This document shows, piece by piece, positions 9,184 to 58,713 of a stretch of 64,000 nucleotides of DNA. A program made the position numbers and the translations under genes. Each line of letters starts with the position of its first letter. The first letter of the stretch is position 1. The DNA lies in IMG/VR virus record IMGVR_UViG_3300043256_000348, positions 1-64,000 of that record; one strand, 5' to 3'. Below the pieces are notes generated by a model that saw only the letters and a list, made by a program, of their open reading frames with translations, was not told the DNA's origin and did not search any database. The stretch is from a virus.

Positions 9184-9297
9184 TGAGCGTTCACGTCGTC
9201 GAAGGCGGAGCCGGTCCCATGATCCACGTTTGTAATCCCCTATTTTTGGCTCATGGAGTGGTTGTGGATATTGTCGTGGTGGTTCAGCCCGTCGCCC

Positions 9298-10242
9298 TTA
9301 CCGTCCTCCCATGCTTTGGCCTTCCCTGGCAATCTTTCGGGACTCAAGATAGTTGTTGCCCTTGGCTACTTCCATCGTGGTGATCAGCCCCGTCTGCGGG
9401 TTCAACGTCACCCAGAGATTTTTCAGGTCCTGCCAGTTGGTCAAGCTGTCCTCGGCCGTGCCGGCCGGGACCCGCTCCTGCTTGCCGACCAGCAGAAAGA
9501 TCGGTTCGGCCCCTGAGTGGACGTGACCATCATGGTAGACGCGCTCCAACGATCCATTGGGCGAAAACATGATGTAGACGCGCGAATTCGTTTGCGCGCC
9601 GATGGAATGCGAATCAGTCCCCGAGAATTCCAGATCGATGATTGTGCGGGCGGGCAATTGGAGGGAACTAACAGCCGACTTGCTGGGCTGCCGGGTGATC
9701 TGATAGGCCACCGGCGCGGATTGCGCTGGGGCCTTAGGCCAAGGCAACCTCTGCCCCTGAGACAGATCGATTTGAAGCGTCAATGAATCGGCGGTGCGCT
9801 GTACGATTTCATACATCGGCCCCTGATAGTTGAACTGTACAAGATCCCCTTGGCTGACTAGGCTGATATTGATTGGTGAGGTGAGTTGTGCGAGCACGGT
9901 TGCCATACCGCCAGATAGGGAATCCACCCGCAATTGCGCAGCCGCATCGAGCGTCTCGCCAGCGTACGGGGGCGGCACTTCGACCTGTTGGAGCACCGCG
10001 GCGCACTGCGGCAGGCCGTCCATCCGCCGGATCATCACGCCGCAGGGCCGCCCGGTCTCCATTGCCCGGTTCCGGGCCGAGGAGAAATAAATGTTGACTT
10101 GCCGGGCCGCCTCGCGAGTTCGCCGCTCTTCCATCGAGAAGTCTATCATCCGGGCACCGACCGCCAACAGGACCACGATGATAGAAATCGCTACCAGCAA
10201 CTCGACCAGCGTGAAACCACTCTGCTTTGTTCTGGCCCTCAT
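9298..10242 (-). CDS. Type IV prepilin-like (minor pilin/pseudopilin) protein with N-terminal cleavage/methylation site
   Basis: Class III signal MRARTKQSG-FTLVELLVAISIIVVLL with E5; AAGGGAG RBS; ARNRAMETGRPCGV as in GspH/FimT-like proteins. Confidence 0.9.
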   Translation of the reverse strand: MRARTKQSGFTLVELLVAISIIVVLLAVGARMIDFSMEERRTREAARQVNIYFSSARNRAMETGRPCGVMIRRMDGLPQCAAVLQQVEVPPPYAGETLDAAAQLRVDSLSGGMATVLAQLTSPINISLVSQGDLVQFNYQGPMYEIVQRTADSLTLQIDLSQGQRLPWPKAPAQSAPVAYQITRQPSKSAVSSLQLPARTIIDLEFSGTDSHSIGAQTNSRVYIMFSPNGSLERVYHDGHVHSGAEPIFLLVGKQERVPAGTAEDSLTNWQDLKNLWVTLNPQTGLITTMEVAKGNNYLESRKIAREGQSMGGR

Positions 10243-10276
10243 CGTTTTGCTCCCTTGAGTTCAGCCCCGCTTAGCC

Positions 10277-10284
10277 ATTATACC
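10277..10284 (-). promoter_or_regulatory. GGTATAAT -10 element upstream of the pilin gene
   Basis: ATTATACC on + strand, about 35 nt upstream of pilin ATG; same octamer recurs across the window. Confidence 0.6.
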
Positions 10285-10331
10285 CAATTGGCACCGCAGA
10301 TACCCCCGAAATCCGCCAGAGAGTCAGTTCG

Positions 10332-11015
10332 ATGATCCAAGTCGGCATCACCGCATCGCCCCGGCCCGTGGACTACCTGCCGGCCACCGTGGCGAGCCTC
10401 CGGGCCGCCGGCTGGCCCGATCCCGTAGTGTTCGCCGAGCCCGGCACGCCCGCACCCCCGGACTGCCGCTTTGTCGCCGCCCAGCGCCGCCTGGAGCCGT
10501 GGTTTGCCTTCCAAACGGCTCTCGGCAGCCTCTTGGCAACCGGCCCGCAGGGAGCGAGCCTGGCCATCTTTCAGGATGATGTGCTCGCGGCCCGGAACCT
10601 GCGGGCGTGGCTGGACGCAGAGCCGTGGCCCCCGGACGCGGGGGTGGTGTCGCTCTACCTGTCGGAGGCGCAGGCGGAGGGGCGGCCGCTCGGCTGGTCT
10701 GCCCTCGACCCGGACGCCAACCCCTACGGGGCCTGCGGGGTCGTGATGAGGCCGGAGGTCGCCCGGAGGCTCTTGGACGACCCTCCCCACCGGGGCAACG
10801 GCCGGATGACGGACACCTGGCTCGGCGTGTTCTGCGAGCAGGCCGGGCTACGGTTTTGGCAACACAAGCCGAGCCTGATCCGGCACGTCGGCCGGGAATC
10901 TTCGCTGTCGCGGAAGGGGCACAGGCCGATCGTCCGGCCGTGGATTCCCGCTAGGCACGAAGGGGATTTCGTCGAGGACGCCGCGCTGTTAGCCCACGGG
11001 CGGATCACGGTATAA
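10332..11015 (+). CDS. Glycosyltransferase, GT-A fold (GT2/GT25-like)
   Basis: LAIFQDDV DxD-type motif; YGACGVVM; PSLIRHVG. Confidence 0.7.
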   Translation: MIQVGITASPRPVDYLPATVASLRAAGWPDPVVFAEPGTPAPPDCRFVAAQRRLEPWFAFQTALGSLLATGPQGASLAIFQDDVLAARNLRAWLDAEPWPPDAGVVSLYLSEAQAEGRPLGWSALDPDANPYGACGVVMRPEVARRLLDDPPHRGNGRMTDTWLGVFCEQAGLRFWQHKPSLIRHVGRESSLSRKGHRPIVRPWIPARHEGDFVEDAALLAHGRITV

Positions 11016-11016
11016 T
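11009..11016 (+). promoter_or_regulatory. GGTATAAT -10 element, probable leaderless transcript
   Basis: 6 nt upstream of ATG 11023. Confidence 0.5.
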
Positions 11017-19408: not shown

Positions 19409-20443
19409 GTGATCCGACTGTTTCAACCGAACGTAGGCTGGCGCGAGGCGTGGGCTGTCGCCCGGCAGGTACGGTCCGGCTGGATCGGGCCGGGCAAAAA
19501 GGTCCGCCAGTTTGAGCAGGAGTTCGCCGACGCGGTCGGCCGCAAGCACGCGCTGGCAGTCACCTCCGGCACGACGGGGCTACTGCTATCGCTGTGGGCG
19601 AGCAACCTCAAGTCGGGTGGCACCGTGGTCTTTCCGGCCTATACGTTCCTAGCCGGGGCCAACGCGGCGAAGCTGGCCGGATACGGCGTCGAGCTGTGCG
19701 ACGTGGCAGAAGATGGCTGCCTTGACCTGTCGCCTTTCCGCCGTAGCGTCCTGCCCGGCGTCGTCATGTTCGTCGGGCACAACGGGCAGGGCTCCGCCTT
19801 GACCGCGAGGCAGTGGTGCGATTCCAGGGAGTGCTTGTGCATCGAGGACGCCTGCCAGTCCCTGGGCTGTCCGGAAGCCGGGTCGCACGGTCACATGGCA
19901 GTGTTCAGCTTCTCGCCGCAGAAGCTAATCACTACGGGGCAGGGAGGGATGGTCGTGACGGACGATGACGAACTGTACGACAGGCTCGACGCCTTCAGGG
20001 ACCACGGCGGGGCGGACTGGCGATCGTCGAACTGGCACAGGCGCGTCGGCGGGAACTTCCGCATGACGGACATTCAGGCGGCGATGGGACTGACCCAGTT
20101 GAGGCGGCTGCCGAAACTCGTGAAGCGGCGGAGGAGGATACTGGATTGGTACGTCTACCACGGGCTGTCATCTATTCCCGCGTGGAATACCGACGCTTGG
20201 TGCGCGGCGTACCGCACCCGGCGACCCGGCGACGTGATCGAGGCGTTGCAGCGTTGCGGGGTGGATGCCCGCAAGCTCTATCGAGCCGTACATCAGCACG
20301 GACCGTACGCAGCGGAAGACCGGCTCTTTCCGGTGGCGACGAAGCTGGCCCACGAACTGATCTACCTTCCGTCCCACCTCAGCGTGACCCGGCAGGAAGT
20401 GAAACGCATCTGCGAACTTGTCCGTCAATTCGAGGGAGCGTAG
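19409..20443 (+). CDS. DegT/DnrJ/EryC1/StrS PLP aminotransferase (perosamine synthase-like)
   Basis: TSGTTGL, IEDACQSLG, FSFSPQKLITTGQGG (PLP Lys), NFRMTDIQAAMG. Confidence 0.92.
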   Translation: MIRLFQPNVGWREAWAVARQVRSGWIGPGKKVRQFEQEFADAVGRKHALAVTSGTTGLLLSLWASNLKSGGTVVFPAYTFLAGANAAKLAGYGVELCDVAEDGCLDLSPFRRSVLPGVVMFVGHNGQGSALTARQWCDSRECLCIEDACQSLGCPEAGSHGHMAVFSFSPQKLITTGQGGMVVTDDDELYDRLDAFRDHGGADWRSSNWHRRVGGNFRMTDIQAAMGLTQLRRLPKLVKRRRRILDWYVYHGLSSIPAWNTDAWCAAYRTRRPGDVIEALQRCGVDARKLYRAVHQHGPYAAEDRLFPVATKLAHELIYLPSHLSVTRQEVKRICELVRQFEGA

Positions 20444-20444
20444 C

Positions 20445-21215
20445 ATGGCCGACGTTTTGCGAGTCCGACCGTCGAGCGGCATGTGCAGCCGGCTCCGAGT
20501 GATCGTGGGGGCGATGGCTCAGGCAGAGGCCGAGGGCCGCGAGCTGGAAGTGCTCTGGGACTGGACGCCGGGCGGTTCATCCTCTGGGCAGATGCCGCTG
20601 GGCCTCTCTGAAATCTGGCAGGCGCCATTCAGAATTCTGCAAGCCGCTCCACCAGACGAGCCATGCCTGGAGACGTGCCACCTGGAGCCGTTTCGTGAAT
20701 TCATCCAAGACGGGCAATTCGTCAGGCACTTCCTCAGGCTCACCCTACGGCCGAAACTCGCCGAGCGCATCGCAGCGGCCTCGGCGCTGCTGTCGTCGCC
20801 TATCATGGGCGTTCATATCAGGACATCGGAGAAGCACCGCGACATGGTCGGGCTGACTTGGTTCCGACATCGACTAGAGCAGTTGCGGCTCTCCGATCCA
20901 CAGTGCACCTTTTACCTGTCGGCCGACGATCCGGTGACGAGCATGATGATTCACGACATATTCGGCCCGGCGGTGATTGAGCAGAGCAAGACGTACCGCT
21001 ACGACCGCGATGGGGCTCTAGCCCATGCCGCTGATCTGTATGTACTGATAAGATATTGTAAGCGTGTCATCGGCACGAACTGCTCGGCGTCGTCGCAAGT
21101 AGTCGCATTAGCAAGGGGAGCGAAATACAATGGGCCGAGCCACCGGCCGGGCGGAGTGTCCGGCGGCGGCTACGAGGACGCCTGGAACCCGCCGGCGGAA
21201 GGTGGACGCGGATGA
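20445..21215 (+). CDS. Fucosyltransferase-like GT-B (NodZ/GT23/O-FucT-like)
   Basis: GMCSRLR, GVHIRTSE, FYLSADD, ADLYVL...IGTNCSASS motifs. Confidence 0.7.
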   Translation: MADVLRVRPSSGMCSRLRVIVGAMAQAEAEGRELEVLWDWTPGGSSSGQMPLGLSEIWQAPFRILQAAPPDEPCLETCHLEPFREFIQDGQFVRHFLRLTLRPKLAERIAAASALLSSPIMGVHIRTSEKHRDMVGLTWFRHRLEQLRLSDPQCTFYLSADDPVTSMMIHDIFGPAVIEQSKTYRYDRDGALAHAADLYVLIRYCKRVIGTNCSASSQVVALARGAKYNGPSHRPGGVSGGGYEDAWNPPAEGGRG

Positions 21216-21844
21216 TCGTACTCGTGGCAGGAAGGCACCGTAGCGGCACAAGCATGGTTGCAGGCATCCTACACAAGCTGGGCGTCACGATGGTCGACGC
21301 AATGGCCCCGGCCGACCGGTGGAACGCCGCGGGCAACTACCAGGACCTTGAGTTCTCCCGGCTGCTGATGCTGGCCATGCCCAACTGGAAGTCTCCACGG
21401 GAATGGTCGCTCGCCCCGTACCGGGAAGAAATGCAGGCGTACCTCAGAGGAAAGCAGGCGGCGCACAAGCACTGGGGACTGAAGCACCCGCGGATGTGTT
21501 ATATGCTGGACGAAATCGTGGCCATGATCGGCAAGCCGGTGAAGCTCATCGTAACGAGCCGCGATATTCACGCATCGATCAGGAGCATCATGCGGTGCTT
21601 CGACTCGTTGGACTGCGAGACGGCGGAGCGGTTGGAGAGGGACTGCGATACCGCGTTGCGTGAACAGAAGGCATTCCGGACCTTGCCGAAACTACAGGTC
21701 AGGTACGAGGACGTTGTATCGTGCGCCTCCCCTCGCATCTTTGTCCGGAGGATCGCGGAGTTCGTGGGCTGTGGCTGTGAATACTCAAGGGAGGCGGTGG
21801 CCGCAATCCGGCCGGAGCTAAACCACGAAGGGAGGGCGAGGTGA
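21212..21844 (+). CDS. Sulfotransferase
   Basis: VAGRHRSGTS PAPS-binding loop; WGLKHPR; VRYED. Confidence 0.85.
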   Translation: MIVLVAGRHRSGTSMVAGILHKLGVTMVDAMAPADRWNAAGNYQDLEFSRLLMLAMPNWKSPREWSLAPYREEMQAYLRGKQAAHKHWGLKHPRMCYMLDEIVAMIGKPVKLIVTSRDIHASIRSIMRCFDSLDCETAERLERDCDTALREQKAFRTLPKLQVRYEDVVSCASPRIFVRRIAEFVGCGCEYSREAVAAIRPELNHEGRAR

Positions 21845-22674
21845 GCACCTTTCACTTGCAGGTCAACGGCGGACTGGCGAGCCGCCTGCGGGTGGTCGTG
21901 GGCGGCATCGCGTACTGCGAGGCGACGGGAAGGCGGCTGCACGTCGACTGGCCGCTGATTGAGAAGTCGGAGACCAGCGGGAAGTTCCCGATCCGGTTTG
22001 GCGACATCTGGAAGTACGACCTGGAGGAGACGAACGGCACGGTGATCTGGGGCGGGGCGAAAAACGCGAACCTCGACTGCGGCGGGGACGTGCGGCTGCG
22101 TACCTGCCACATTGAGCCGTTCCTGCCCTACCTTAAGCGGCCCTTTCGGCACTATGTCAACCAGCTCTCAATGCAGCCTAAGACAGCAGCCATGGTCGAT
22201 TCGATGCTTCCCCGCCTGAAGGCCGTACTCACCGCCGGGGTGAACATCCGCTGCGCAATCAGCGATCCGCACACGAAGAAGCCCGACTGGTTCTGGGAGC
22301 GAATGGAGAAAGTTCAGTCCGGCTCGGCGCTCCCGATGCAGTTCTTCCTCTCGACGGACGAGAAAGAAGTCAGCGACGCGACCAAGGCGAGGTTCTTGGT
22401 GATCGAGCGGCCGCAGACCTTCCTCTACGACACGGAGGGGATACGAGGCCGGGCTGCGGACATCTATCTCTTGGACGCCTGCGACTGGGTGATCGGCAGC
22501 AACCACAGCAGCTACTCGCAGTTCGTCGCTATGCTTAGGGGGGCCGAGTATCTCGGCTCGCATGAAAAGCCGGAAGGACTGAAGGGAGGGCGATATGAGG
22601 ATGCGTGGAACGAGGCAGATAAAGCGGAGCTATGCAAGGCACGAGGTAGTAGCCATTCAGCCTGGGTACGGTAG
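21841..22674 (+). CDS. Fucosyltransferase-like GT-B, paralog of 20445-21215
   Basis: GGLASRLR, GVNIR, FFLSTDE, ADIYLL..CD.VIGSNHSSYS; shared TCHxEPF and GGxYEDAWN. Confidence 0.7.
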   Translation: MSTFHLQVNGGLASRLRVVVGGIAYCEATGRRLHVDWPLIEKSETSGKFPIRFGDIWKYDLEETNGTVIWGGAKNANLDCGGDVRLRTCHIEPFLPYLKRPFRHYVNQLSMQPKTAAMVDSMLPRLKAVLTAGVNIRCAISDPHTKKPDWFWERMEKVQSGSALPMQFFLSTDEKEVSDATKARFLVIERPQTFLYDTEGIRGRAADIYLLDACDWVIGSNHSSYSQFVAMLRGAEYLGSHEKPEGLKGGRYEDAWNEADKAELCKARGSSHSAWVR

Positions 22675-22686
22675 CGGTTAAATAAC

Positions 22687-23313
22687 GTGCCGGAAACACA
22701 GAACTTTTACAGTCAGTTCAAGACCGAATCACTGGTCGCCGAGCTGCTTAAACGGGTTGGAGTAAAGCACCAGGTCTGTTGCGAACTGGGCGCGTGGGAC
22801 GGTATCAAGTTCAGCAATATCGCACACCTCGTTCGGCACCAGGGCTGGTCGGGCGTCTTTGTGGAAGGCAATGAGGAGCGGGCGATACAATGTAAAATGA
22901 ATTATGCAGACTATCCGCAAGCTACTGTCATCCACGCCTGGGTGACCAGCGACAATGTGGACGATCTGGTTCCGAAGGACTGCGATTTTTTAAGTGTCGA
23001 CATAGACGGCAACGACTATTGGGTATTTAAGAGTTTGTCGCATCGGCCACGCCTGATCGAGATAGAATATAATCACAGGAAGAAGGGTGTCGAGCCGTAT
23101 CCCTATGATCCGCATTTTAACTTCAGGAAGCAGGGCATAGACAAAAGGCATGTTCAGGCCGGGGCCGCAGCGTTTATTTTACTGGCCGAATCACTCGACT
23201 ATTATTTCCTCACTAGTGACGGGCAATGTAACTTGTTTTTCGCTCCGGAGGAAGTAGTGTGTCCCCGCGATCATTTCTGGGGCCGACCAACCATAGCGGC
23301 GAGTGACAAATGA
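22687..23313 (+). CDS. FkbM-like SAM methyltransferase
   Basis: CELGAWDG..FSN, WSGVFVEG, DFLSVDIDGNDYWV, IEYN; lower GC. Confidence 0.8.
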   Translation: MPETQNFYSQFKTESLVAELLKRVGVKHQVCCELGAWDGIKFSNIAHLVRHQGWSGVFVEGNEERAIQCKMNYADYPQATVIHAWVTSDNVDDLVPKDCDFLSVDIDGNDYWVFKSLSHRPRLIEIEYNHRKKGVEPYPYDPHFNFRKQGIDKRHVQAGAAAFILLAESLDYYFLTSDGQCNLFFAPEEVVCPRDHFWGRPTIAASDK

Positions 23314-23409
23314 TAGAGTTGCGTCTTGAAGCACGTGGTTGTGGATCTGGATAGTGAAGAATGGAAAATCGTCGATTCACAGAAAACTCATAACGACTGA
23401 GATACCCCA

Positions 23410-24021
23410 ATGGCCGACGAAGCATGGGAAGAGTTACTACGTCAGTTTCCGTGGCCAGCGGAGCGGCCGAGTGTGACGGGCCCTCACGTCAACCGAATCC
23501 ACGGCTGGCTTGCCGAAGGTACGAAGGAAATGATCCGCAAGCACCTGCCATCGTCCGGGCTGGTCATGGAGCTGGGAACGTGGATGGGCAAGTCGGCGCA
23601 GTACATGCTCGGCATGGCCCCCGGAATACGGCTCGTGTGCATCGACCACTGGCTCGGCTCGCCGGACATCAACCAGATGCAGGCGCATCGGGACATGCTG
23701 CCGACGATATACGATCACTGCCGGTACCACCTCTGGCCGTACCGCGACCAGATCGTGCTGCTGCGAATGGATATGGCGGACGGCATGAGGAAAGTGCATG
23801 AAGCCGGCCTGCAACCAGGGATGGTTTACGTGGACGGCGCCCACGACGCCAAGAGCGTGGAGGCCGACGCAAGCGGGGCCGGGTCACTGTTTCCTGCGGC
23901 CGACCTTGTAGGTGATGACTGGGAACGTGAAAGCGTGAGGCAAGGCGTACTTAGGGCTGTAAGGGAATTTCCGAAGCGGCGGTTGTCTGACAACGGCAAG
24001 GCGTGGGTTATGGAGCTGTAA
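23410..24021 (+). CDS. Class I SAM methyltransferase (Methyltransf_24-like)
   Basis: MELGTWMGKS, CIDHWLGS, VYVDGAH, VGDDW. Confidence 0.85.
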   Translation: MADEAWEELLRQFPWPAERPSVTGPHVNRIHGWLAEGTKEMIRKHLPSSGLVMELGTWMGKSAQYMLGMAPGIRLVCIDHWLGSPDINQMQAHRDMLPTIYDHCRYHLWPYRDQIVLLRMDMADGMRKVHEAGLQPGMVYVDGAHDAKSVEADASGAGSLFPAADLVGDDWERESVRQGVLRAVREFPKRRLSDNGKAWVMEL

Positions 24022-24022
24022 T

Positions 24023-25048
24023 ATGCTCGTGGTAGTCAATCCAACCGTGCGACGCGGTGAGCCGGGCGGAAACCGACGTAAGACGAGGCGGCTGGTCTAC
24101 CTTGCATGGATCGCCCGAGACATGGGGCACGAGGTGAAGATACACCTCCCGTCCAGCCCGCGCGTTCGCAGCCTACGCAACAGCGAGGGACGGTACGAGT
24201 TCGTGGACATCGTAGACGACCTGCCCGTGGTCGACAACGCGAGGGACCTGCCCGCCGATGCGGTGTACCTTTGCTCTTCCGGCCAGGCCCTCGTGTCGGA
24301 GAACGAGCTGCCGAAGCGGGCCAAGGTCGTGATCTTCAAGGAGTACCTCGGCACGACGCACGAGCGGCGATTGGTGGACGTGTGCGACCTGCTCGTGGCC
24401 TACGTCAGGCTGGTGACGGATTTCAGCGTCACCGTGAAACGGCCGGCCGATCCGTCCGGCTTCGACAAGGCCACCAGGGCCAAGGCGTTCTCCGTTCCAT
24501 GGCGGCCGCACGAGAAGGTCACACAGGTGATCCACGACGACGGCATAGTGGTGCCCTTCCTGCGAGACGAGCTGGGGGCGATCCGGGCGAAGTACGGGGC
24601 AGCCGACAAGGCCCGCGACGTGGGGTTCATCGGCGAGAACGTCCCGCCGCGGTCGCGAATCACGGCCCACTACGCGAATGACGACAGATTTATCGTGCAA
24701 TGGGCGGGTGGGCATCATCCGTCGATCCCGGCCCAGCAGTACCTCTGGTGGATTTCTGAGTGCCGGATCGTGCTGGGGCTGCCGGGCGACACCTGGAAGT
24801 GCTCGCGCTTCTGTGAGGCGGTGATGATGGGGGTTCCGGTGGTCCAGCAAGCGGGTACAATTGAACTTACGCCGCCAATGACGCGGGAGAACACGGTGCT
24901 GCTTGACGAGTGGGCCGACAAGGGTGAGATCATTTCCCGGCTGGATGACACTGAGGCTATCGTGGCAGCGGCCGATAAGGCGTACCGGGAGGGCTGGAGC
25001 CTACGGGGGCAACTGGGCCAGATATTCAAGCGGCTAGGGGTTGAGTGA
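24023..25048 (+). CDS. Putative glycosyltransferase (GT-B)
   Basis: DVGFIG...LGLPGDTWKCSRFCEAVMMGVPVV C-terminal domain. Confidence 0.6.
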   Translation: MLVVVNPTVRRGEPGGNRRKTRRLVYLAWIARDMGHEVKIHLPSSPRVRSLRNSEGRYEFVDIVDDLPVVDNARDLPADAVYLCSSGQALVSENELPKRAKVVIFKEYLGTTHERRLVDVCDLLVAYVRLVTDFSVTVKRPADPSGFDKATRAKAFSVPWRPHEKVTQVIHDDGIVVPFLRDELGAIRAKYGAADKARDVGFIGENVPPRSRITAHYANDDRFIVQWAGGHHPSIPAQQYLWWISECRIVLGLPGDTWKCSRFCEAVMMGVPVVQQAGTIELTPPMTRENTVLLDEWADKGEIISRLDDTEAIVAAADKAYREGWSLRGQLGQIFKRLGVE

Positions 25049-25734
25049 TGCTGATCGTGGACGACAAGTGGCTGCTGATCGGACCGAACCGGCACGGGTC
25101 GCTGTACTGCCGTGATGTGCTTTCGGCGGCATTCGAGTGCCGGCCCAGCTCCGGCGACAAGCCCCACCACACGCCGCTGTGCCGGATACCGCCCGAGGTC
25201 CGAGCGGGTAAGATCATCGTCGGCATCGTACGCTGCCCGCTGCGGTGGTACCTCAGCAAGTGGCGGGTATTCTGGGAGCACGCCCCGCCGGAGAAGCGCT
25301 ACAACTTTTCGGCCTACTTCTGGAAGCACTGGACGAACCCACACGGGCCGATCGGCAAGGCGACCGAAGACTTCCCGCTAGCCAAGGCCGAGATCGGCGG
25401 CTGGAGCTACCAGCACATCGCCTACCATTGCGAGTCAGCAGAGGGGATGCTCACTGAGTGGACGCGACGGGAACTCGCTGAGGGTTTCGGAGCGGAACGG
25501 TCGGTCCGTTACATGCTCCACACGGAGACGCTGACCGACGATCTAATCCGACTGTTCGGCGACAAGGTTCGGCCGCACCTCGACAAGCCCCGGAACGCCA
25601 CCGACTCCGGCGACGTGCTGAGCCACTACACGGTGGAAATGCTGGAGGCGATCCGGAAACGCGACGGCTGGCTGGCCTACCACTACCCCGAACTCGACTA
25701 CCACAAGTTCATGGAGAAGAAGCTATGCTTCTAA
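25048..25734 (+). CDS. Sulfotransferase-like protein (divergent)
   Basis: IGPNRHGS loop and IVRCPLRWYLS parallel the two PAPS motifs of 16465-17061. Confidence 0.6.
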   Translation: MLIVDDKWLLIGPNRHGSLYCRDVLSAAFECRPSSGDKPHHTPLCRIPPEVRAGKIIVGIVRCPLRWYLSKWRVFWEHAPPEKRYNFSAYFWKHWTNPHGPIGKATEDFPLAKAEIGGWSYQHIAYHCESAEGMLTEWTRRELAEGFGAERSVRYMLHTETLTDDLIRLFGDKVRPHLDKPRNATDSGDVLSHYTVEMLEAIRKRDGWLAYHYPELDYHKFMEKKLCF

Positions 25735-26261
25735 TGTCGCGGCACCTGACCGAGTACAACGTCGTGCCCGCGGGGGCGGTCGTGCGGATCAACCTCGCGT
25801 GGGAGGCGTCGCTGGAACAGTTGGAGGCGCACCTTGCAGAGCTGACGCACTACGTCTTTCTCGATGTGCCCGTGGGCCGGGTCAAGCCGCCGGTGCAGTC
25901 GTGGCAGCCGGACCTTGTCGAACTTGTCAAGCGGCACCGGAACATTTGGTACGTCGGCGTGTCGAACGTCGGCGAGCCCGACGACCTTATGTTCTACCTA
26001 ACGAAGCTGCCGAGGCGCGTAGTCGTCGTGCCGAAGATCGAGTCGGTCTGGGCGTGTCAGAACATCCGGCAGATCGAGCAGGTGCTGCGGCCGCCAAAGA
26101 CGATCATGCTGGACCACGACGACCTGTTCCACGACATGGTGCAGAAGGGCGAGTCACCGGGCAACCTGTACGCAAACTACATCGACGGGCTGGTGGACTT
26201 CTGCCGGCGGAACGATATTCGCCTGCTACGGACGGCGGGCGTGGTGTTCTCTGATAAATAG
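25725..26261 (+). CDS. Short pyruvate kinase/HpcH aldolase-like TIM-barrel protein
   Basis: VRINLAW, FLDVPVGRVKPP, VPKIES, IMLDHDDL. Confidence 0.6.
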   Translation: MLLMSRHLTEYNVVPAGAVVRINLAWEASLEQLEAHLAELTHYVFLDVPVGRVKPPVQSWQPDLVELVKRHRNIWYVGVSNVGEPDDLMFYLTKLPRRVVVVPKIESVWACQNIRQIEQVLRPPKTIMLDHDDLFHDMVQKGESPGNLYANYIDGLVDFCRRNDIRLLRTAGVVFSDK

Positions 26262-26273
26262 GAGGCGTGTTTA

Positions 26274-27245
26274 GTGAAGGTCTTACTTGTCGCCGACGTG
26301 ATAAATTGGTGCTGGGGCTTCCGAGCCACTGATCTTAGCAATCACGCCCCCGATGGCGTCGAGGCCGTGGTCACCGTGCAGGCGGACGTAAAGAAACACG
26401 ATCCAGCCAAGTACGACGCGGTGTACTGGATGCCCTGGCAGTTCCCCGACTGGAGCTGGCTCGACCGCTGCAAAAGGCGGGTGACGCTGCTGACGTGCAA
26501 CGGGCTCCAGTTCGACCGGGTTGACGACACCAACTGGCAGTCGTGGGTCTACACGCCGAATCGTGGCTCGCAGAGCGCGGGGGAGAACCTGCCGAGGTTC
26601 AACGCGGTGGTCGCGGTCAACCGGCAGCTCCACGAGGCGTGCAAGCGGCACAACCCGAACACGCACCTTGTGCCGAGCCCGGTGAACATCGATCTGTTCA
26701 CGCCCGGCCGCATAATGGAATTCCCGCCGCTGCAAGACCGCAAGCTGCGAGTCGGCTGGTGTGCATCGCCCCGCGGACACCGGAGCGTCAAAGGATACAA
26801 GGAAGTTCTCCTCCCGCTGGTGGAACGCACCTTTGAGAAATACGACTGGGTGACGAACACGCGCGACTACCGCGACGCCCTGACCCGCGAGCAAATGGTC
26901 GAGTGGTACCACGGGATCGACGTGTTGGTGTGCACCTCGATCAACGAGGGCACGCCGAGCCCGATCTTCGAGGCGGCTGCCTGTGGTCGGGCGATCATCT
27001 CGACCGACGTGGGTTGCGTGGCCGACTGGGAACTCCCACACTTGCAGGACGTGGTCACGGGGACCTACTACAATCAAGCGGGGGCTGATCGAATAATCGA
27101 AGCGACTGTTGATCGGCTGGACCGCTTCGACAGGAATCGCAGCCTAATGGATGCCATGGGCTTCGACTTACGAAGGTCGGTCGAGCAGAACTACAGCTAC
27201 TGCGTCTTGGCCCCGAGGTACTTCGAGGCGATACTGGGGGAGTGA
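26274..27245 (+). CDS. Glycosyltransferase (GT4-like)
   Basis: LRVGWC, TSINEGTPSPIFEAAACGRAIISTDVG. Confidence 0.88.
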   Translation: MKVLLVADVINWCWGFRATDLSNHAPDGVEAVVTVQADVKKHDPAKYDAVYWMPWQFPDWSWLDRCKRRVTLLTCNGLQFDRVDDTNWQSWVYTPNRGSQSAGENLPRFNAVVAVNRQLHEACKRHNPNTHLVPSPVNIDLFTPGRIMEFPPLQDRKLRVGWCASPRGHRSVKGYKEVLLPLVERTFEKYDWVTNTRDYRDALTREQMVEWYHGIDVLVCTSINEGTPSPIFEAAACGRAIISTDVGCVADWELPHLQDVVTGTYYNQAGADRIIEATVDRLDRFDRNRSLMDAMGFDLRRSVEQNYSYCVLAPRYFEAILGE

Positions 27246-29725: not shown

Positions 29726-29728
29726 CCA

Positions 29729-32193: not shown

Positions 32194-32227
32194 ATCCAGG
32201 CGTTCCTTGAAGAGAGAGGACAGATCA

Positions 32228-32959: not shown

Positions 32960-32983
32960 TGCACGAGACATAAGGAATCCAAG

Positions 32984-37714: not shown

Positions 37715-37954
37715 TCATTTCTCCTTCGCCTTGGTGGCTTGCTGATCTTTCCACGCGGCGGTCCGCTCAACACACTCGTCGCAGTAGTATCGCTGGAAGC
37801 ATCCCCGGCTCTGGAGCCAGTGCGCAACGGCGGTCTTGCACCGGCTGCACATCGCAGTGCGGTGCTCGTAGCCGCGTCCGTAGCCCCCCCTGCTGAATGT
37901 CCGCACCAAAGGCCGGGCGAAGCGCTTCACAGGATTTGTTACTACGAGGGCCAC
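37715..37954 (-). CDS. Small zinc-finger protein
   Basis: GTG start after GGAGGAG; CSRC...YCDEC. Confidence 0.5.
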   Translation of the reverse strand: MALVVTNPVKRFARPLVRTFSRGGYGRGYEHRTAMCSRCKTAVAHWLQSRGCFQRYYCDECVERTAAWKDQQATKAKEK

Positions 37955-37955
37955 G

Positions 37956-42198: not shown

Positions 42199-42378
42199 TC
42201 AGCCCCCCTCTGTCTCCAGCACATCCAGTAGCCGCCTCAACTTGTCGCGATGCTGCCGGTACGGCTTGCCGAGCTTGTCCAGCATCGCCTTTCGCTGAGC
42301 ATTGTAGCCTTCCTCCAGCTTGAATAGCTCGGCCTTGACCTGGTCGGCCGTCACGCCAGTTCGCTCTGTCAACGTCAT
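42199..42378 (-). CDS. Small coiled-coil hypothetical protein
   Basis: RBS AAGGAGA; 59 aa. Confidence 0.5.
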   Translation of the reverse strand: MTLTERTGVTADQVKAELFKLEEGYNAQRKAMLDKLGKPYRQHRDKLRRLLDVLETEGG

Positions 42379-42443
42379 AGCTCTCTCCTTTCGTTTGCCG
42401 CCGCGTCCGGCGCTAACGCCAAAACGCGAACTTAGTACCGCTT

Positions 42444-42704
42444 TCATAGAGGCCGCAAGAGTGCCTCTTTTTCAGCATCGGTTAGCTTCGCCAGGGCGGA
42501 TTCCCTTAGTACGTGTGGGGAAGTCCACTCACTGGCCTTCTCACACATTTCGATCTCTTCAAGAGTAACAAGTACGGGGTAAGGTCTGTGGTTACATGCC
42601 AGCTTTGCTTCACTGGCTGCTGCCTCAGTCGTGAACCTAGCTGCCAAATGGATACTCCCGTCGTTCGTTACCACCTCCAGCCTCCAGCAGTTAATCGTCT
42701 GCAT
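42444..42704 (-). CDS. Hypothetical protein (low GC)
   Basis: ESALAKLTDAEKEAL C-terminus common in phage small proteins; flanked by 22-bp repeats. Confidence 0.55.
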   Translation of the reverse strand: MQTINCWRLEVVTNDGSIHLAARFTTEAAASEAKLACNHRPYPVLVTLEEIEMCEKASEWTSPHVLRESALAKLTDAEKEALLRPL

Positions 42705-42756
42705 TTGATTACCCTTTCCGGTAAGCCAGTAATGTGAATTGACACCGCGTCTGGCC

Positions 42757-44646
42757 CTAACGCCAAGCCAATACTTTGACCGCGTACATCTTACATTGTA
42801 CCGCGAGATCATATCCGCCTCGCCTGAAAATCGCGCCTTCGTCCGTCCGCTCGGCCACCTCGTGGAACTTCGACTCGTGCGCCGTCTCATAGGGCAGCCA
42901 GTCCTGGCCCTCCCGGCGGATGCGGCATTCGACGCCCTTCGCTACCGTGTACTCCAGCTCCAGGTCGCCGAACCGGAACAGCCTGCCCCGCCGCTTCGCC
43001 ATCGCCCGCCGCCTGCCATCCTCCGACTGGAAATTCCAGCCGCCCGGCCGCGTGGCGATGTGCGTCATCACGTCGGAAGCCTCGGCCAAGGTCATGCTCG
43101 GATCGAAGCCTCGCGCCTTCAGCATCCGAGCCTGCTTGTACGTTGACAGCTTCCCGCGAGACCGCCTCGCAGCCTCGCCGATCAACTGCCGGGCCTGGTT
43201 GTACGTGAGCCCCTTGTCCGGAATGCCGATCTGCTTCAGCCTAGCCTTCTGCTCGTCGTCGGGCGGCAGGTTCTTCCACCAGCCGGGCGACTCCGACTCG
43301 CTGAGCCCCACGGCGTCGCCGAACACGCAGAACGGATCGACGGTCTTCCGCGTGGCCTTCGCCTCGGCTATGATCCTGGCCCGGTCGGCCGCCCGTATCT
43401 CGTCCGCCCTCGCCTGGCAGGCCAGTACCTCCTCCAGCACGTCGGCCGGCTTGTCCCCGGCGGCCTCGAATACGCGGGCCCGGCACTCGTCTCTCACTAC
43501 AGAGTCGAGCTTGCCCCCGAGCAGGTCAGCCGTTGATTGCAGCTTGTGCTTCATCGACGATCCAACGAGGTCGATCACTAGGCAGTCGCTCTTGCCCTCC
43601 ACCGGGGCGAGCGGCCCGCCGCGGAGGCCGCGACCGATCATCTGGGCGTGGAGCATCCGGCTGAGCGTCGGCCTCGCGATGACGATGCACGACACGGCCG
43701 GGAAGTCGGTGCCCTCAAGGTAGACGCCACAATTCACGGCCACCTGAAATTCTCGCCGCCGAAACGCCTCCGCGATTGCCCGCCGCTCGTCCTCCGGTGT
43801 TTTCGCCGAGACGCACTGCGCGCCGCCCTTGCAGTAGCGGGCCATGACCTCGGCCACCATTTCGGCCACGCGAACGGATGGCGTGAAGATCAACGTCTGC
43901 CGGTCGCCGATCATCGGCGCGATAGGCGACACGATCTTGTGTATCGCCTCTTCCTGCCCGATCACCGCGTCCAGGTCCTCGGCCGACAGGTCGCCGCTCC
44001 CCGTCTTGCGAACGCTCGACCAGTCGAGATCGTCCACCCTGACGAACTGCTGCTTGATGGGGGCAAGCCAGCCGTCCTGAATCGCGTCGATCAACTCGTA
44101 GTGGTAGGCCACGTCGTCGAAGAATTTCCCTAGCGGCACCTCGTCCGCCCTATCCGTGGTGGCGGTGGCGCCTAGAATTTTCGCCGGCTGGAAATAGTCG
44201 AGTACGGTCTGCCAGCTCTCGCAGATAACGTGATGCGCCTCGTCGACGAAGATCATGCCGAAATCATCCGGTGAAAAGAACTCCCTTCGGTTCGGCCGCA
44301 GCATCGTCTGGATCGACGAGACCACTACGGAGCTGCCCATCAGCTTCGGGGACTTGACGATCGACCGCTCGCCCTTCTCCACCGCCACCGGCTCGCCCAT
44401 CCAGTCCTCGCACGCCTCGGCGGCCTGGTCGATAAGCTCGTCCCGGTGTGCCAGCCAGAGCACGCGGGCCGGCAGCTTGTAGTTCGATGCGAGGTCGTGG
44501 TTGCACCAGGCGTCGGCAAGGTAGGCCCCGACGGCCGTCTTGCCCGAGCCGCAGGGCATAGAAATAAGTACGCGCGCGTGGCGGTGCCACTTCTGGCACA
44601 CCTCGTACACCGCGTCGTTCTGGTACGGCCGGAGTTCAAGCGTCAT
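42757..44646 (-). CDS. SF2 DEAH helicase (ResIII/IRC3-like)
   Basis: LRPYQ, PCGSGKT, VDEAHH, GATAT, EGTDFP, QMIGRGLR. Confidence 0.92.
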   Translation of the reverse strand: MTLELRPYQNDAVYEVCQKWHRHARVLISMPCGSGKTAVGAYLADAWCNHDLASNYKLPARVLWLAHRDELIDQAAEACEDWMGEPVAVEKGERSIVKSPKLMGSSVVVSSIQTMLRPNRREFFSPDDFGMIFVDEAHHVICESWQTVLDYFQPAKILGATATTDRADEVPLGKFFDDVAYHYELIDAIQDGWLAPIKQQFVRVDDLDWSSVRKTGSGDLSAEDLDAVIGQEEAIHKIVSPIAPMIGDRQTLIFTPSVRVAEMVAEVMARYCKGGAQCVSAKTPEDERRAIAEAFRRREFQVAVNCGVYLEGTDFPAVSCIVIARPTLSRMLHAQMIGRGLRGGPLAPVEGKSDCLVIDLVGSSMKHKLQSTADLLGGKLDSVVRDECRARVFEAAGDKPADVLEEVLACQARADEIRAADRARIIAEAKATRKTVDPFCVFGDAVGLSESESPGWWKNLPPDDEQKARLKQIGIPDKGLTYNQARQLIGEAARRSRGKLSTYKQARMLKARGFDPSMTLAEASDVMTHIATRPGGWNFQSEDGRRRAMAKRRGRLFRFGDLELEYTVAKGVECRIRREGQDWLPYETAHESKFHEVAERTDEGAIFRRGGYDLAVQCKMYAVKVLAWR

Positions 44647-47389: not shown

Positions 47390-48064
47390 ATGTACAGATT
47401 GCTTTTTGCGGCTGTGGCCTGGTTGAGCCTGTCGGGGACGGGCGCGGTCGCAGGACTGGAGATCAGCCAACCGCCGGACGAGGTGGCACCAGGTGACGAT
47501 GTTGAACTAATCGTCAGCGGGATCAACTACCAGCAGTTGCCCCAAGCTACGCTCCGCTACTTTCCACGCAATCAGGTACGAGTACGCGGGACTCTTTCAT
47601 GGGGCCTTGAACCACGTATCGACTTCCGGGCACGGTTGCCAGGCGAATATCTGGTGTTCGTATCGGCCACGATCGACGGCAAGAACGAGTATTCTGAAGT
47701 CATTATCGTTGTTGGCGACAAGCCCCCAGATCCACCCCCGCCTCCGCCTCCTCCGCCACCGTCAGACCTTTCAGCGTTCGTGGCAGACCTCATCGAAGAG
47801 CTTGACATCGAGACCGGGACCAGCGAAGTCGCGGGATTCTTTCAAGACGCCGTGCCGAAAGTTGACAGTGACGAGCTGCGCGGCTCGAAGGCGATCGTCG
47901 AGGCGGTCACGAAACGCATTGCCGCGATGAACTCGACCAAGTGGAAAGCGTTCTCCAGCCTGCTCTACGGCCATCTGCTCAACGAGCTGCAACTCGTCAG
48001 CCAGAGTCAGTGGTCAGACGCCTACAAGGAAGTCGTGCTGGGACTGGGAGGAGTGAAGCCATGA
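47390..48064 (+). CDS. Secreted two-domain protein with poly-Pro linker
   Basis: Signal peptide MYRLLFAAVAWLSL; PPDPPPPPPPPPP. Confidence 0.7.
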   Translation: MYRLLFAAVAWLSLSGTGAVAGLEISQPPDEVAPGDDVELIVSGINYQQLPQATLRYFPRNQVRVRGTLSWGLEPRIDFRARLPGEYLVFVSATIDGKNEYSEVIIVVGDKPPDPPPPPPPPPPSDLSAFVADLIEELDIETGTSEVAGFFQDAVPKVDSDELRGSKAIVEAVTKRIAAMNSTKWKAFSSLLYGHLLNELQLVSQSQWSDAYKEVVLGLGGVKP

Positions 48065-48243
48065 CGAACCAACGTGACAAACCGACAATTGGGCGGCCCA
48101 ATCCGTGGCCGGACGAAGACGTGATAACTCACGTTGACGGCGATGTGGGAGCGCCACTCCCGCCAGATTGCAAGCGGGAGTGGCCCGAGGCGTGCAAAAC
48201 CGACACCCCGGAGCGAGTGGTAGTAGAGGGGGTAAAGCCATGA
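48061..48243 (+). CDS. Small hypothetical protein
   Basis: ATGA-coupled both sides; ends EGVKP like upstream GGVKP. Confidence 0.45.
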   Translation: MTNQRDKPTIGRPNPWPDEDVITHVDGDVGAPLPPDCKREWPEACKTDTPERVVVEGVKP

Positions 48244-49154
48244 AGACAGATCGAGAAATTATCGAACTGCTTGAGTGGACGGGACACCTACAATACCCGT
48301 TTGGGAAATACGTAGGTACCATTACGGCAGATGACATTGGATTGCTTTCGTTAACCGATCCGGTCGTCAAGGAAGCAATTCGCAGCTACCAGGATCTCCT
48401 AGTTGTCAGTCTCGAACCACTCGCACTGCGTCATCACGGGCGGTCCGTGTGTTGCGACGGCGACTGCGGGATCGCGACCCGGGAGTTGTTTGAGCAACCC
48501 CGGTGTGGCTGTCCTGATTACGGCCCGCAGGTACAGCCGGCCGTCGGGACCGGCAGTTGGAAACGGTGCCACAGCATCGGCGACTTCCACGCGGCGACCG
48601 TGTACGTTCACGAATCCGGTATGGCGTCGTGGCTGAAGCCGAAGTTCGATGAGGTATGGAAGCTCACCGTGGCGGCCTACGAGGCGTTGGGCCTGCGGTG
48701 GATTCGGACCGACAACCGGAATGCCAACATCGACTTCTCGTTCGTGACCGGATCGCGAGGCTGGATCGGCCTGGCCATCGTCGGCTCCGGGCAATCCTGC
48801 GGTAGCCAAATTTGGTGCAAGTACCTGGCGAGCTGGCGGCCGTCAAACGTTGTGCGAGAATGGGCCATCCTGGTGATGCACGAGCTGGGCCACAATGCAG
48901 GCCTCTACCATACGCGCGGCGGGGTAATGAACGCAGGGATAATCTACGGCTTACCCGCTAGTTGGGCGGGGGATCCGGCCGAAAGCATTCTCAAGAGATA
49001 TTACGGCGGTCAACCGATCGAGCCGGAGCCGCCGGTACCTCCGCCTCCGCCTCCCCCGCCACCTGGCCCAGAAGACGAAGAGTACGGGAGCCTGAAGATG
49101 TTCAGGGAGGGTAAGTGGAAAGATTTTGATGTACTTGAACGGGCGAAAGTTTGA
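48240..49154 (+). CDS. Matrixin-like (M10) zinc metallopeptidase with cysteine-switch prodomain
   Basis: PRCGCPD (48498-48518); HELGHNAGLYH (48879-48911); Met-turn GVMN. Confidence 0.88.
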   Translation: MKTDREIIELLEWTGHLQYPFGKYVGTITADDIGLLSLTDPVVKEAIRSYQDLLVVSLEPLALRHHGRSVCCDGDCGIATRELFEQPRCGCPDYGPQVQPAVGTGSWKRCHSIGDFHAATVYVHESGMASWLKPKFDEVWKLTVAAYEALGLRWIRTDNRNANIDFSFVTGSRGWIGLAIVGSGQSCGSQIWCKYLASWRPSNVVREWAILVMHELGHNAGLYHTRGGVMNAGIIYGLPASWAGDPAESILKRYYGGQPIEPEPPVPPPPPPPPPGPEDEEYGSLKMFREGKWKDFDVLERAKV

Positions 49155-56657: not shown

Positions 56658-57551
56658 ATGGCTGACCAAGCACAAGCACTCCAAAACGGAACGCTTATCC
56701 TGGAGGTGATCTTCCACAAGCCGGGGATCACGCGTCGCGGCGACCTTGGCAAGGTCGAGACCGCCGCCGATAAGAAGCAGCTCGGCCTGTCGAAGAAGAT
56801 CATCGACTCGCCCCAGTACAGGGCGGTGCTGCACGTCGCGAACGCCTGCCGCGAGTACCTCAAAAGCCTGGAGTTGGAGGCCCCGTTCAAGACCGGGCGG
56901 CACCTGCTGCCGCTGAAGCTGCTGGAGCGTGCGTACACCCGCGTGGAGGAAGCCGAGGTCGCGTACCACGAGGCGGCGGACGCATTCATTGCCGCGTACC
57001 CGGCGCAGGTCCAGGCCGCCAGGCAGTCGCTAGCCGACCAGTTCGACGACGGCGACTACCCCGGCCTGGAGACTCTGCGAGAGCAATTCTGGGTCGAGCG
57101 CCGGGTCACGAGCTGGGACACGCCCGGCGAGGCGAAGATCGGCGAGTACCTGTACGAGAAGGAAAAGAGCCGCGTGGCCGAGGAGCTGTCAAGCGTGGCC
57201 GAGGACGCGAAGTTGGCCCTCCGCGAGGGACTGCGAATCCTCACCGGCAAGCTGGCCGAAAGTTTGGGGCCGAAGCCGGACGGCAAGCGGCGGCGGCTGA
57301 GCGAGTCCACCGTAAAGAAGGTCACCGACTGGCTGGCATCATTCGACGCCCGCAACGTGCTGGGCGACGCGGACCTGGGGGCCGTGGTGACCGACCTCAA
57401 GAGCGTGCTGAACAATCGCGGCGTGAAGGAACTCCGGACGAACGAAGGGATGCGAGCCGCCGTCAAGACCGAGCTGGAGCAGACAGGCAAGGCGCTGGAG
57501 GCCCTGCTTGTGGACGTGCCCGCACGGGCGATCAGCTTGGGGGACGAGTGA
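56658..57551 (+). CDS. DUF3150-like helical protein
   Basis: RBS AAGGAGG; LSKKIIDSP, FDDGDYP, GPKPDGKRRRL, FDARNV; context next to AAA and DUF1257. Confidence 0.6.
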   Translation: MADQAQALQNGTLILEVIFHKPGITRRGDLGKVETAADKKQLGLSKKIIDSPQYRAVLHVANACREYLKSLELEAPFKTGRHLLPLKLLERAYTRVEEAEVAYHEAADAFIAAYPAQVQAARQSLADQFDDGDYPGLETLREQFWVERRVTSWDTPGEAKIGEYLYEKEKSRVAEELSSVAEDAKLALREGLRILTGKLAESLGPKPDGKRRRLSESTVKKVTDWLASFDARNVLGDADLGAVVTDLKSVLNNRGVKELRTNEGMRAAVKTELEQTGKALEALLVDVPARAISLGDE

Positions 57552-57769
57552 TGGAGCAGGATGAGATCAACAAAGCCCGGCTGGTACTGGCCCTTAAACG
57601 CGAGCTTGACGTGTGGGAGTGTGATGACGAACAGGTGCTCGCAGCTACAAAGGGGACGTTTTTTAGGGCGCGAGTAGAGGTGCGGCTAGCTGTAGGCGAT
57701 CTGTGCCGCGTACTCCGAAACGAGCTTCAGAACATCCTCATTGCAATCGGTAAATGGTTTCGGCAATGA
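57551..57769 (+). CDS. Small hypothetical protein, paralog of 31939-32193
   Basis: ALKRELDVW...TKGTFFRARVEVRLA. Confidence 0.7.
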   Translation: MEQDEINKARLVLALKRELDVWECDDEQVLAATKGTFFRARVEVRLAVGDLCRVLRNELQNILIAIGKWFRQ

Positions 57770-57950
57770 CCAGATTCCTATTCAGCCCGATAACCGTAGG
57801 CGTCGGCCGTCCTCAGCGGCAATGTCGGGTGGGGCGAGTTGCCCCTGACATCGCCGATCAGCCGATGGGTAACGGCCGTGAAATCGACCGTCGGCTCCTT
57901 ACTTCAACGACACGAGGCTGGGCGACCGGCCGCAACCGGAGGGCGTAACC

Positions 57951-58403
57951 ATCTCGCACGTAGCTCTACTCGACCTGACTATTGACTCGCTCGACACGCT
58001 CGCTAAGGCGTGCGAGGCGATGGGCTTCACGTTCGATCGTGAAGGGACCAACTGGAAATGGTACGGGCGCTGGGTTGGAGATTACAACGTCAAAGACGCC
58101 GCGTACAATCAGGGCATCGCGGTAGAGCGGTACGGCACGTCCGACGCGGGCGTGATCCGTGTCCCTGGTGCCGCGTATGAAGTCGGCGTCTACAAGTCGC
58201 CGAACGAGCCGGGCAAGTACCGGCTGGTCTACGATAACTTCTCGGCGGGCAAGGGACTGCACGACAGGTGCGGCCCCGGGCTCGGCCTGCTGAAGCAGCG
58301 CTATGCCGCCGAGCGAAGCAAGAAAGAAATGAAAAAGGCTGGCTGGCGTGTCCGCGAACAGAAACAAGACGACGGGCAACTGCGGCTCGTCTGCACAAGG
58401 TAA
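57951..58403 (+). CDS. DUF1257 (Ycf35)-like protein, apparent ATC start codon
   Basis: RBS GGAGGG 57938-57943 then ATC-SHVALLDLTIDSLDTLAKAC; YEVGV, LKQRYA, GWRV...DGQLRL. Confidence 0.7.
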   Translation: MSHVALLDLTIDSLDTLAKACEAMGFTFDREGTNWKWYGRWVGDYNVKDAAYNQGIAVERYGTSDAGVIRVPGAAYEVGVYKSPNEPGKYRLVYDNFSAGKGLHDRCGPGLGLLKQRYAAERSKKEMKKAGWRVREQKQDDGQLRLVCTR

Positions 58404-58407
58404 AATC

Positions 58408-58713
58408 ATGGACCGCAACACCTTACGCAGAGCACTGGCCCGCGTGCCATACTATATGCGGCAAGGCGTGCTGGACTACCTGTATCAGGGCTGCCCGCCC
58501 GGCGACTTCCTGCGGGCCGTGTTAGAAAACGATCTTCACTTGGCCGGCTTGCAGGCGGACAACGAAAACCAAAGGGCTCTCATTGATTGGGTTGCCGTAC
58601 TGGACGCATTGCCATTGACGATCTGGGGCAGCCGAAAGAAGGTCGACGCCCATCTGGCCAGCCACATCCTTCGTAAACAACGAGAGGAGCAAGAAGCGTC
58701 ATGCAAAAGGTAA
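58408..58713 (+). CDS. Conserved hypothetical phage protein
   Basis: PPGDFLRAVLENDL...AD..N...WGS. Confidence 0.65.
   Translation: MDRNTLRRALARVPYYMRQGVLDYLYQGCPPGDFLRAVLENDLHLAGLQADNENQRALIDWVAVLDALPLTIWGSRKKVDAHLASHILRKQREEQEASCKR

Follow-up and report, generated by a model that had tools for sequence, protein, structure and literature searches.

Duplicated gene junctions around small accessory genes in a phage genome from marine sediment

Introduction

Why should single small genes in a phage genome lie, again and again, between two copies of the same short gene junction? The question is raised by IMG/VR virus record IMGVR_UViG_3300043256_000348, of which the first 64 kb (positions 1 to 64,000, the window) of 92,947 bp were analysed. 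IMG/VR rates the record as complete, with direct terminal repeats, and the only public run that holds the stretch comes from a marine sediment metagenome. An earlier note listed nine pairs of direct repeats in the window (here pairs 1 to 9, in order of position). Each was thought to bracket exactly one accessory gene and to repeat the stop codon, ribosome-binding site (RBS) and start codon of the neighbouring genes, and an integrase-free accretion of gene cassettes was proposed. Our analysis indicates that the small extra genes between duplicated junctions are genuine traces of recombination between related phages, through which genes were gained. Phages gain small accessory genes constantly and the joints are usually traceless; here, about ten joints in a single 93-kb genome keep a relic, which records the neighbouring gene of the donor and, in one case, the lineage of origin.

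Similarity of paired gene boundaries

All nine repeat pairs are present, with the coordinates and identities first reported, and three of them extend further: pair 5 to 21/25 matching nucleotides, pair 7 to 24/28 and pair 2 (31906/32195) to 34/43. Without recourse to a gene model, 26 exact direct repeats of at least 11 nt were found at offsets of 200-400, where the rate at offsets of 3-20 kb predicts about 10.8 (Poisson P 6e-5). Matches of the 19/22 type occurred at 0.047 per offset at distances of 200-350 and at about 0.0005 at long range.

The earlier note had called for a comparison of the two boundaries of each gene with random boundary pairs, and the two ends of one gene do exceed the latter in similarity. 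Using a model of 157 genes, windows of +-45 nt at both gene ends and a null of 3000 random pairs of real boundaries, we obtained a boundary score of at least 12 for 11 genes (0.58 expected) and of at least 10 for 19 genes (3.4 expected). Since the null is built from real boundaries, it already contains the RBS/ATG bias by which shared constraint on stop/RBS/start sites could produce matches. Constraint probably does account for one region: past the end of the window, nine consecutive small genes (genome 64435-67250) carry a near-identical extended Shine-Dalgarno sequence with stop/start overlap, and this array alone yields high boundary scores for brackets of any gene number. Outside the array (63-70 kb), the excess is specific to brackets of one gene, with 11 scoring at least 10 and 5 at least 12, compared with averages of about 3.3 and 0.7 for brackets of two to eight genes (P ~7e-4).

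The same pipeline was applied to other phages. It detected no excess in lambda (1 gene scoring at least 10 and none at least 12), and the values for L5 (7 and 1) were near expectation. The complete 90-kb relative G001 gave 19 and 12, against 3.6 and 0.3 expected. G002 gave 7 and 4, brackets of two to four genes scoring alike in this genome, and G003 gave 4 and 3, a modest excess. The boundary signal is real, no artefact of the method, and marks this phage group rather than phages generally.

The pairs differ in strength when taken singly. Against the 3000-pair null, p was below 3e-4 for pairs 2 and 7, 7e-4 for pair 5, 0.004 for pairs 3 and 4, 0.009 for pair 6, 0.011 for pair 8, 0.03 for pair 9 and about 0.08 for pair 1. 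Pairs 2, 5 and 7 are strong, pairs 3 and 4 moderate, pairs 6, 8 and 9 weak (p 0.01-0.03 among 157 genes, as chance or shared constraint could give), and pair 1 is at chance. The repeats span 12-45 nt, and outside every one of them identity falls at once to background (25-30%). Ancient tandem duplication followed by divergence was ruled out, as identity is at background right at the repeat borders. Each repeat was found only at its own pair, with the exception of a 9-mer core that occurs four times in the genome and is common to pairs 4 and 8; with this exception, the view that the repeats differ from site to site and do not represent one att site holds. Preservation of translational coupling, which had been claimed for every pair, is apparent at pairs 2, 4, 5, 8 and 9 and not clearly so at pairs 3 and 7.

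Insertions around the radical-SAM gene

Pair 2 is anchored in a radical-SAM gene of 415 aa (30702-31949, plus strand; Pfam PF04055). The last 44 nt of this gene form the first repeat copy, J1 (31906-31949, plus strand), which an alignment identifies as the conserved C-terminus of the family. The inserted gene, X (31939-32193, plus strand; 84 aa), starts within J1 and has a GC content at third codon positions (GC3) of 0.55. The second copy, J2 (32195-32238, plus strand), begins 1 nt past the stop of X and is a non-coding relic of a radical-SAM 3' end: in the alignment it reads in frame as the conserved family C-terminus, it has its own stop, and it contains both the RBS and the start of gene Y, which follows (32228-32959, plus strand; 243 aa).

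As had been reported, both copies encode FLEERGQIN with all four differences synonymous, including a CGG/AGA arginine pair. In addition, at two positions where the resident gene has Gly and Glu, J2 has the residues of the P0002/L082 allele, Ala and Val, and it matches the radical-SAM tail of the relative L082 at 40/45 positions, against 34/45 (76%) for J1. The allele residues, the synonymous differences and the closeness to L082 together indicate that J1 and J2 diverged in separate genomes, while each was the end of a functional gene, and were joined later. The pair-2 repeat thus derives from two parents, not from a fresh duplication of the target.

Gene X itself, judging from its codon-level divergence, is real. 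A paralog, X2, lies at 57551-57769 (72 aa; 56% aa identity, E 3e-19), and the differences between the two are distributed 22/19/43 over the codon positions, mostly at the third. X is evidently not tied to one junction sequence, because X2 sits at another junction without common flanks. X2 is itself an extra gene between DUF3150 and DUF1257, and is absent from G001.

A profile search with the radical-SAM protein retrieved 160 loci, several of which show how the region looks without the inserts. In L081/L082, whose radical-SAM protein is 79% identical at the aa level, the gene is followed directly by a homolog of Y (Y') with one copy of the junction and no X; Y' is followed directly by a homolog of the 33816-34778 gene, and the homolog of the 29729 gene runs straight into the radical-SAM start. 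In the window, the gene at 29729-30352 is separated from the radical-SAM gene by a 118-aa open reading frame (ORF) at 30349-30705 (plus strand), which was outside the earlier list. A relic of the radical-SAM 5' end makes up its first ~22 nt, ATGAT and a 9-mer being common to 30349-30370 and 30702-30750. Gene Y also differs from the shorter Y': an internal segment of about 97 codons, missing from Y', is flanked by 54-nt direct repeats (32477-32530 / 32768-32821).

Immediately downstream, copy 1 of pair 3 (32957-32968, plus strand; 12/12 match) consists of the Y stop and the first 10 nt of a gene M, present as a relic. The 245-bp insert contains ORF Z (32984-33247, plus strand; 87 aa), a putative gene that reads through copy 2 (33214-33225, plus strand) and has no Pfam or PHROG match. 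Copy 2 opens a 46-aa remnant of M (33216-33356, plus strand), an internally deleted form of a gene of about 190 aa. In the relative L089 this gene is intact, and its native stop/start junction is identical to the 12-mer of pair 3. The 12/12 copies of pair 4 (33346 and 33535; 33346-33546, plus strand) bracket 189 nt, or 63 codons, in frame with the ORF at 33353-33826.

Between the radical-SAM gene and the 33816 gene, six relatives carry from 0 to 5 different ORFs. Since the content of this slot varies among them, donors with different neighbours of the same anchor gene exist. The relatives P0002/P0003 are at 70-79% identity. No close relative was detected by megablast against phages, none in single-protein scans of viral contigs with radical-SAM, helicase or RecE-like queries, and none in the genome-contig scan; the junction patterns were not found in viral contigs.

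Repeat pairs elsewhere in the window

Pair 9 (58392-58713, plus strand; 11/12) brackets an ORF of 101 aa (58408-58713) between genes of the Pfam families DUF1257 and DUF2997. In G001, the AAA, DUF3150, DUF1257 and DUF2997 genes and the next gene are directly adjacent; in the window, three of these junctions are occupied by a total of five additional small ORFs, the pair-9 insert among them. DUF1257 and DUF2997 lie 22 nt apart in G001 with no ORF between them; at 36-48% aa identity the two genomes are too distant for the pair-9 repeat to be seen. By comparison with G001, the two copies of pair 9 belong to the native coding sequence of the genes on either side, as would be expected if this match owed nothing to duplication. 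The earlier account implied that relatives lacking an insert should retain a single copy of its junction, and this is what we found wherever the comparison was close enough. On the strength of these comparative alignments, relatives confirm four insertions, namely pair 2, the 30349 case, pair 3 and pair 9.

In the same module, an exact 11-mer leader occurs three times, at 54425, 56463 and 57934, within AAA/DUF3150/DUF1257, the third copy having no start codon after it. When one mismatch is allowed, it is found 8 times (2.0 expected), and 100 shuffles all gave fewer.

The last codons of the superfamily-2 helicase, identified by its Pfam match, and a further 18 nt are repeated at pair 7 (42395-42766, minus strand), the two copies (42739-42766 and 42395-42422) agreeing at 24/28 positions. 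They bracket an ORFan of 86 aa (42444-42704; GC3 0.55), located upstream of the RBS of a native-looking 59-aa gene (42199-42378). The ORFan has no homolog in a large protein collection, and most inserts are therefore regarded as predicted ORFs, unproven as genes.

Pair 5 (35773-36149, plus strand), with copies at 35773 and 36125 matching at 21/25 positions, brackets a 119-aa ORF (35784-36143; GC3 0.60). Copy 1 supplies the start, and copy 2 gives the ORF a C-terminus resembling that of the upstream glycosyltransferase. Tandem paralogy was ruled out for this pair, as the flanking proteins are unrelated; paralogy does explain the match between 26274 and 27242. Pair 8 (48050-48246, plus strand; 15/18) brackets a 60-aa ORF (48061-48243). 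The upstream gene and the insert share their last four residues, each with an ATGA overlap, copy 1 being the insert start and copy 2 its stop. The copies of pair 6 (37949-38428, minus strand; 14/16) comprise a stop, 1 nt and a GTG start, and flank an ORF of 143 aa (37956-38387).

The inserts are thus built in different ways: that of pair 7 has its own RBS, start and stop, that of pair 2 its own stop, and those of pairs 5 and 8 borrow both start and stop. Their composition is atypical, with GC3 of 0.55-0.69 against about 0.8 in core genes. Neither Pfam nor PHROGs suggested a function for the inserted ORFs, and no copies of the inserts were found elsewhere in the genome or in G001, save X/X2 and the internal repeat of gene Y.

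Pair 1 (9219-10342) surrounds an antisense prepilin-like gene (9298-10242) with an N_methyl motif. It had been listed as the footprint of a pilin gene insertion, a claim we abandon: the 10/11 match is at chance level, and the left copy lies 79 nt from the end of the pilin gene.

Beyond the window, a C5-methyltransferase-like cluster (genome 67486-69665) consists of an internally deleted copy (67486-67880), a gene of 357 aa (68222-69295) and a tail relic (69621-69665). The relic follows a 116-aa ORF, the same pattern as at pair 2, and the shared ends match at 57/65 and 55/63 positions.

Origin of the duplicated junctions

The explanation that we favour, while allowing it an even chance, is that genes were gained at hypervariable slots by out-of-register crossover between diverged, co-infecting relatives. 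Two such phages would carry the same anchor gene A with different neighbours (A-x and A'-y). A slight shift in register during recombination, at a point with no homology or only microhomology, would give A-x-(end of A')-y, a product that retains both neighbours and has two copies of a short stretch from the end of the anchor gene; the event in mirror image would leave a relic of the start of the downstream gene. Survivors would be the recombinants with A intact and the initiation region kept. Genes in this genome overlap or are translationally coupled, so that the RBS and start of the following gene lie within the end of A; this would explain why the duplicated piece measures 12-45 nt and is centred on the stop/RBS/start.

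A single unequal crossover would be the generating event, and selection would presumably be the reason why the repeats are centred on junctions. The phage does encode the RecE/RecT functions attributed to it, in the form of RecT (38910-39725, minus strand; Pfam PF03837) and a PDDEXK RecE-like nuclease (39727-40698, minus strand; Pfam PF12684). These candidate recombination functions may take part; RecT is also present in G001. The sharp drop in identity at the repeat borders fits discrete joints and not old tandem duplications, and the heterogeneous architecture of the inserts is more in keeping with joints formed at random and then sifted by selection than with a single precise cassette mechanism.

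Several observations weigh against crossover between relatives. The allele evidence for two parents comes from pair 2 only, over 45 nt, and the pattern of sites there is mixed, two synonymous sites joining J1 with L082. The stop of X lies only 1 nt ahead of the relic, an unexplained precision for a random joint. The relic at pair 7 precedes a separate RBS, and selection for the initiation region does not explain its retention. The 9-mer junction core common to the distant pairs 4 and 8 hints that junction sequence may matter, and no parental genomes are at hand for any joint.

The earlier note had proposed instead that a gene with one copy of its junction exists as a small circle, which the RecT/RecE-like pair integrates through short homology and which may be excised precisely. 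We consider this unlikely, although it has several points in its favour. It predicts the arrangement junction-X-junction here with a single junction in relatives, as observed; the ORFs of pairs 5 and 8 span precisely the interval between the start codon of copy 1 and the stop codon of copy 2, and would be closed ORFs if circular; pairs 4 and 8 have the same junction core; both recombination proteins are encoded here, and RecT in G001; the genome has no tyrosine or serine integrase; and mini-circles between flanking repeats are documented in T4-type phages (PMC2839356). On the other hand, the model requires a prior junction-X-junction arrangement and so leaves its first origin unexplained, and the paralog of X lies at a junction with no common sequence. 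For recombination by an annealing protein, homologies of 12-25 nt with 80-88% identity, such as it relies on, are very short. No enrichment is seen in lambda, which also encodes such a pair of proteins (Red-beta/Exo). Contigs of the one public run, probably from the source sample, contained neither repeat-to-repeat deletion joints nor circles, data that are inadequate to reveal them.

The wider proposal of integrase-free accretion fared better in part. Gene-sized inserts at junctions, duplicated junctions whose sequence differs from one site to another, empty sites, and the lack of any match to tyrosine or serine recombinases (PF00589, PF00239) in the complete genome, transposase families not having been searched, all stand. 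Pair 1 and a uniform architecture of the inserts do not.

Duplication of the target in situ is also quite improbable. Foreign DNA would enter at a staggered break or by template switching, the resident junction would be copied on both sides and the copies would then diverge. The variable length of the repeats, their uniqueness to each site, the lack of linked mobility genes and their frequent position over a gene 3' end (cf. PMC2853133) would suit such an event, as would the identical 12-mers of pairs 3 and 4. At pair 2, the copies are only 76% identical; the relic, now non-coding, matches the allele of another lineage, and its differences from the resident end are mainly synonymous. In most pairs identity is 80-88%, a level like that between lineages (79-83% to L082).

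Yet more doubtful is the idea that the stop/RBS/start junction serves as a generic integrase-free attachment site, at which the RecT/RecE-like pair would insert and excise single-ORF circles through 12-45 bp of homology; if true, a phage that does not integrate would possess a system of gene accretion like that of integrons. The least credible reading, that the matches come from shared stop/RBS/start constraint or chance and mark no footprint, suits pair 1 and the array at 64.4-67.3 kb, and is countered by the one-gene excess that lambda and L5 lack and by the coding relics of neighbour genes at pairs 2, 3 and 7 and in the 30349 case; for pairs 2, 3, 5 and 7 it is refuted.

With closer relatives, this genome family could decide between out-of-register crossover and the integration of circles by short homology, and could show how insertions in translationally coupled operons keep downstream genes expressed.

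Gene content and other repeated elements

The genome has a GC content of 62%, and many of its small ORFs have GC3 of 0.5-0.7. Genes annotated in the window include, besides those for the radical-SAM enzyme, helicase, prepilin-like protein, DUF1257 and DUF2997, several glycosyltransferase-like paralogs and a Mom-like protein. The only nuclease- or mobility-type match reported besides the recombination genes was a sub-threshold HNH-endonuclease match at 59696-59791 (19.9 bits, cut-off 21.4). The window yielded neither a match to an Rfam family nor a credible tRNA; a fold resembling a tRNA, its anticodon of two bases, was reported by ARAGORN within the Mom-like gene (41293-41365, minus strand) and is probably a false call.

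The radical-SAM gene belongs to a glycan-modification island (19409-37490) with tandem paralog families (24023, 26274, 27242 and 28203; 34844 and 36540), and the order of these families around it differs in every relative examined (L001/L097, L088, L089, L081). In the same island, a contig of the same sample skips 180 nt at the head of the 36136-36543 gene (window 36146-36327). Its depth is about 8x against 30x, and it has 28 differences in 206 nt, which suggests that a relative with another version of this gene head is present in the sample.

Towards the end of the window, structured elements at 61661-61808, 63682-63763 and 63904-64000 (continuing to about 64030 in the genome), with a fourth near 64276, bracket micro-ORFs. 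Their common 5' and 3' strands are predicted to pair in a 13-bp stem that encloses a multibranch fold and has a U-run after it (copy 2, -43.2 kcal/mol, z -3.6). They have no Rfam or tRNA match. Farther along, a perfect 30-nt direct repeat with copies 254 nt apart (genome 78439-78468 / 78693-78722) lies within an ORF of 1024 aa (77749-80823).

Comparison with known systems

Like morons, the inserts are additional genes of atypical composition that separate genes adjacent in relatives; for morons, Hendrix, Juhala and colleagues are said to have proposed novel joints at gene boundaries made by illegitimate recombination and selection. Classical morons carry their own promoter and terminator. The inserts described here are instead translationally coupled and accompanied by junction relics, and at pairs 2, 5 and 8 the start overlaps the upstream stop, leaving no intergenic space for a promoter of their own, no promoter scan having been made at these sites. 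Arrays of type VI secretion system effector and immunity genes reportedly grow in a related manner (Kirchberger and colleagues, 2017), new genes displacing older ones downstream through homology-anchored recombination and leaving 3' relics of the upstream gene. Those are bacterial toxin/immunity loci, whereas the present sites are phage operon junctions. Integron-type cassettes differ more clearly, as neither a tyrosine/serine integrase nor a common recombination site is found here.

Insertion with long target duplication was reportedly described by Nobusato and colleagues in 2000. It concerns restriction-modification genes in bacterial chromosomes, with repeats of more than 30 bp that are usually near-identical and a mechanism that is unexplained (Furuta et al. 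2010, PMC2853133). The phage inserts resemble it in the absence of a linked integrase, in unique direct repeats of variable length that often lie over a gene 3' end, in the atypical composition of the inserted DNA, and in the empty site with one copy seen in relatives (pair 2 and the 30349 case, with the pair-3 junction native in L089). They differ in belonging to a phage, in their density of about 10 sites per 93 kb and in repeats of 12-45 nt placed on translationally coupled junctions. Set against the length of more than 30 bp (PMC2853133), pair 2 reaches 43-45 nt, pair 7 has 28 nt or about 40 with a gap, and pairs 3-6, 8 and 9 have 12-25 nt. The relic at pair 2 also comes from another allele, so that its two copies do not both derive from the resident target.

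In T4-type phages, promoter-early stem-loop (PeSL) cassettes and mini-circles are based on one family of promoter and stem-loop terminator motifs present at many sites (Arbiol et al. 2010, PMC2839356; Comeau et al. 2014, PMC4122927). There, as here, ORFans lie between direct repeats in hyperplastic regions, indels leave a single copy and the circles proposed need no integrase. The repeats in the present genome are instead specific to each site and consist of the coding ends of neighbouring genes with an RBS, without promoter or terminator; a PeSL-like layout is seen only in the structured repeats at 61.6-64.3 kb.

Phage recombinases of the Rad52-like/RecT type are reported to carry out relaxed homologous recombination between diverged homologous regions (De Paepe et al. 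2014, PMC3945230). The present phage likewise encodes RecT, and mosaic exchange between diverged sequences is likewise the proposed driver; junction duplications around single genes are reportedly not a subject of that work. Seen against all these systems, the genome is a clear multi-site example of a known phenomenon and not a new kind of element.

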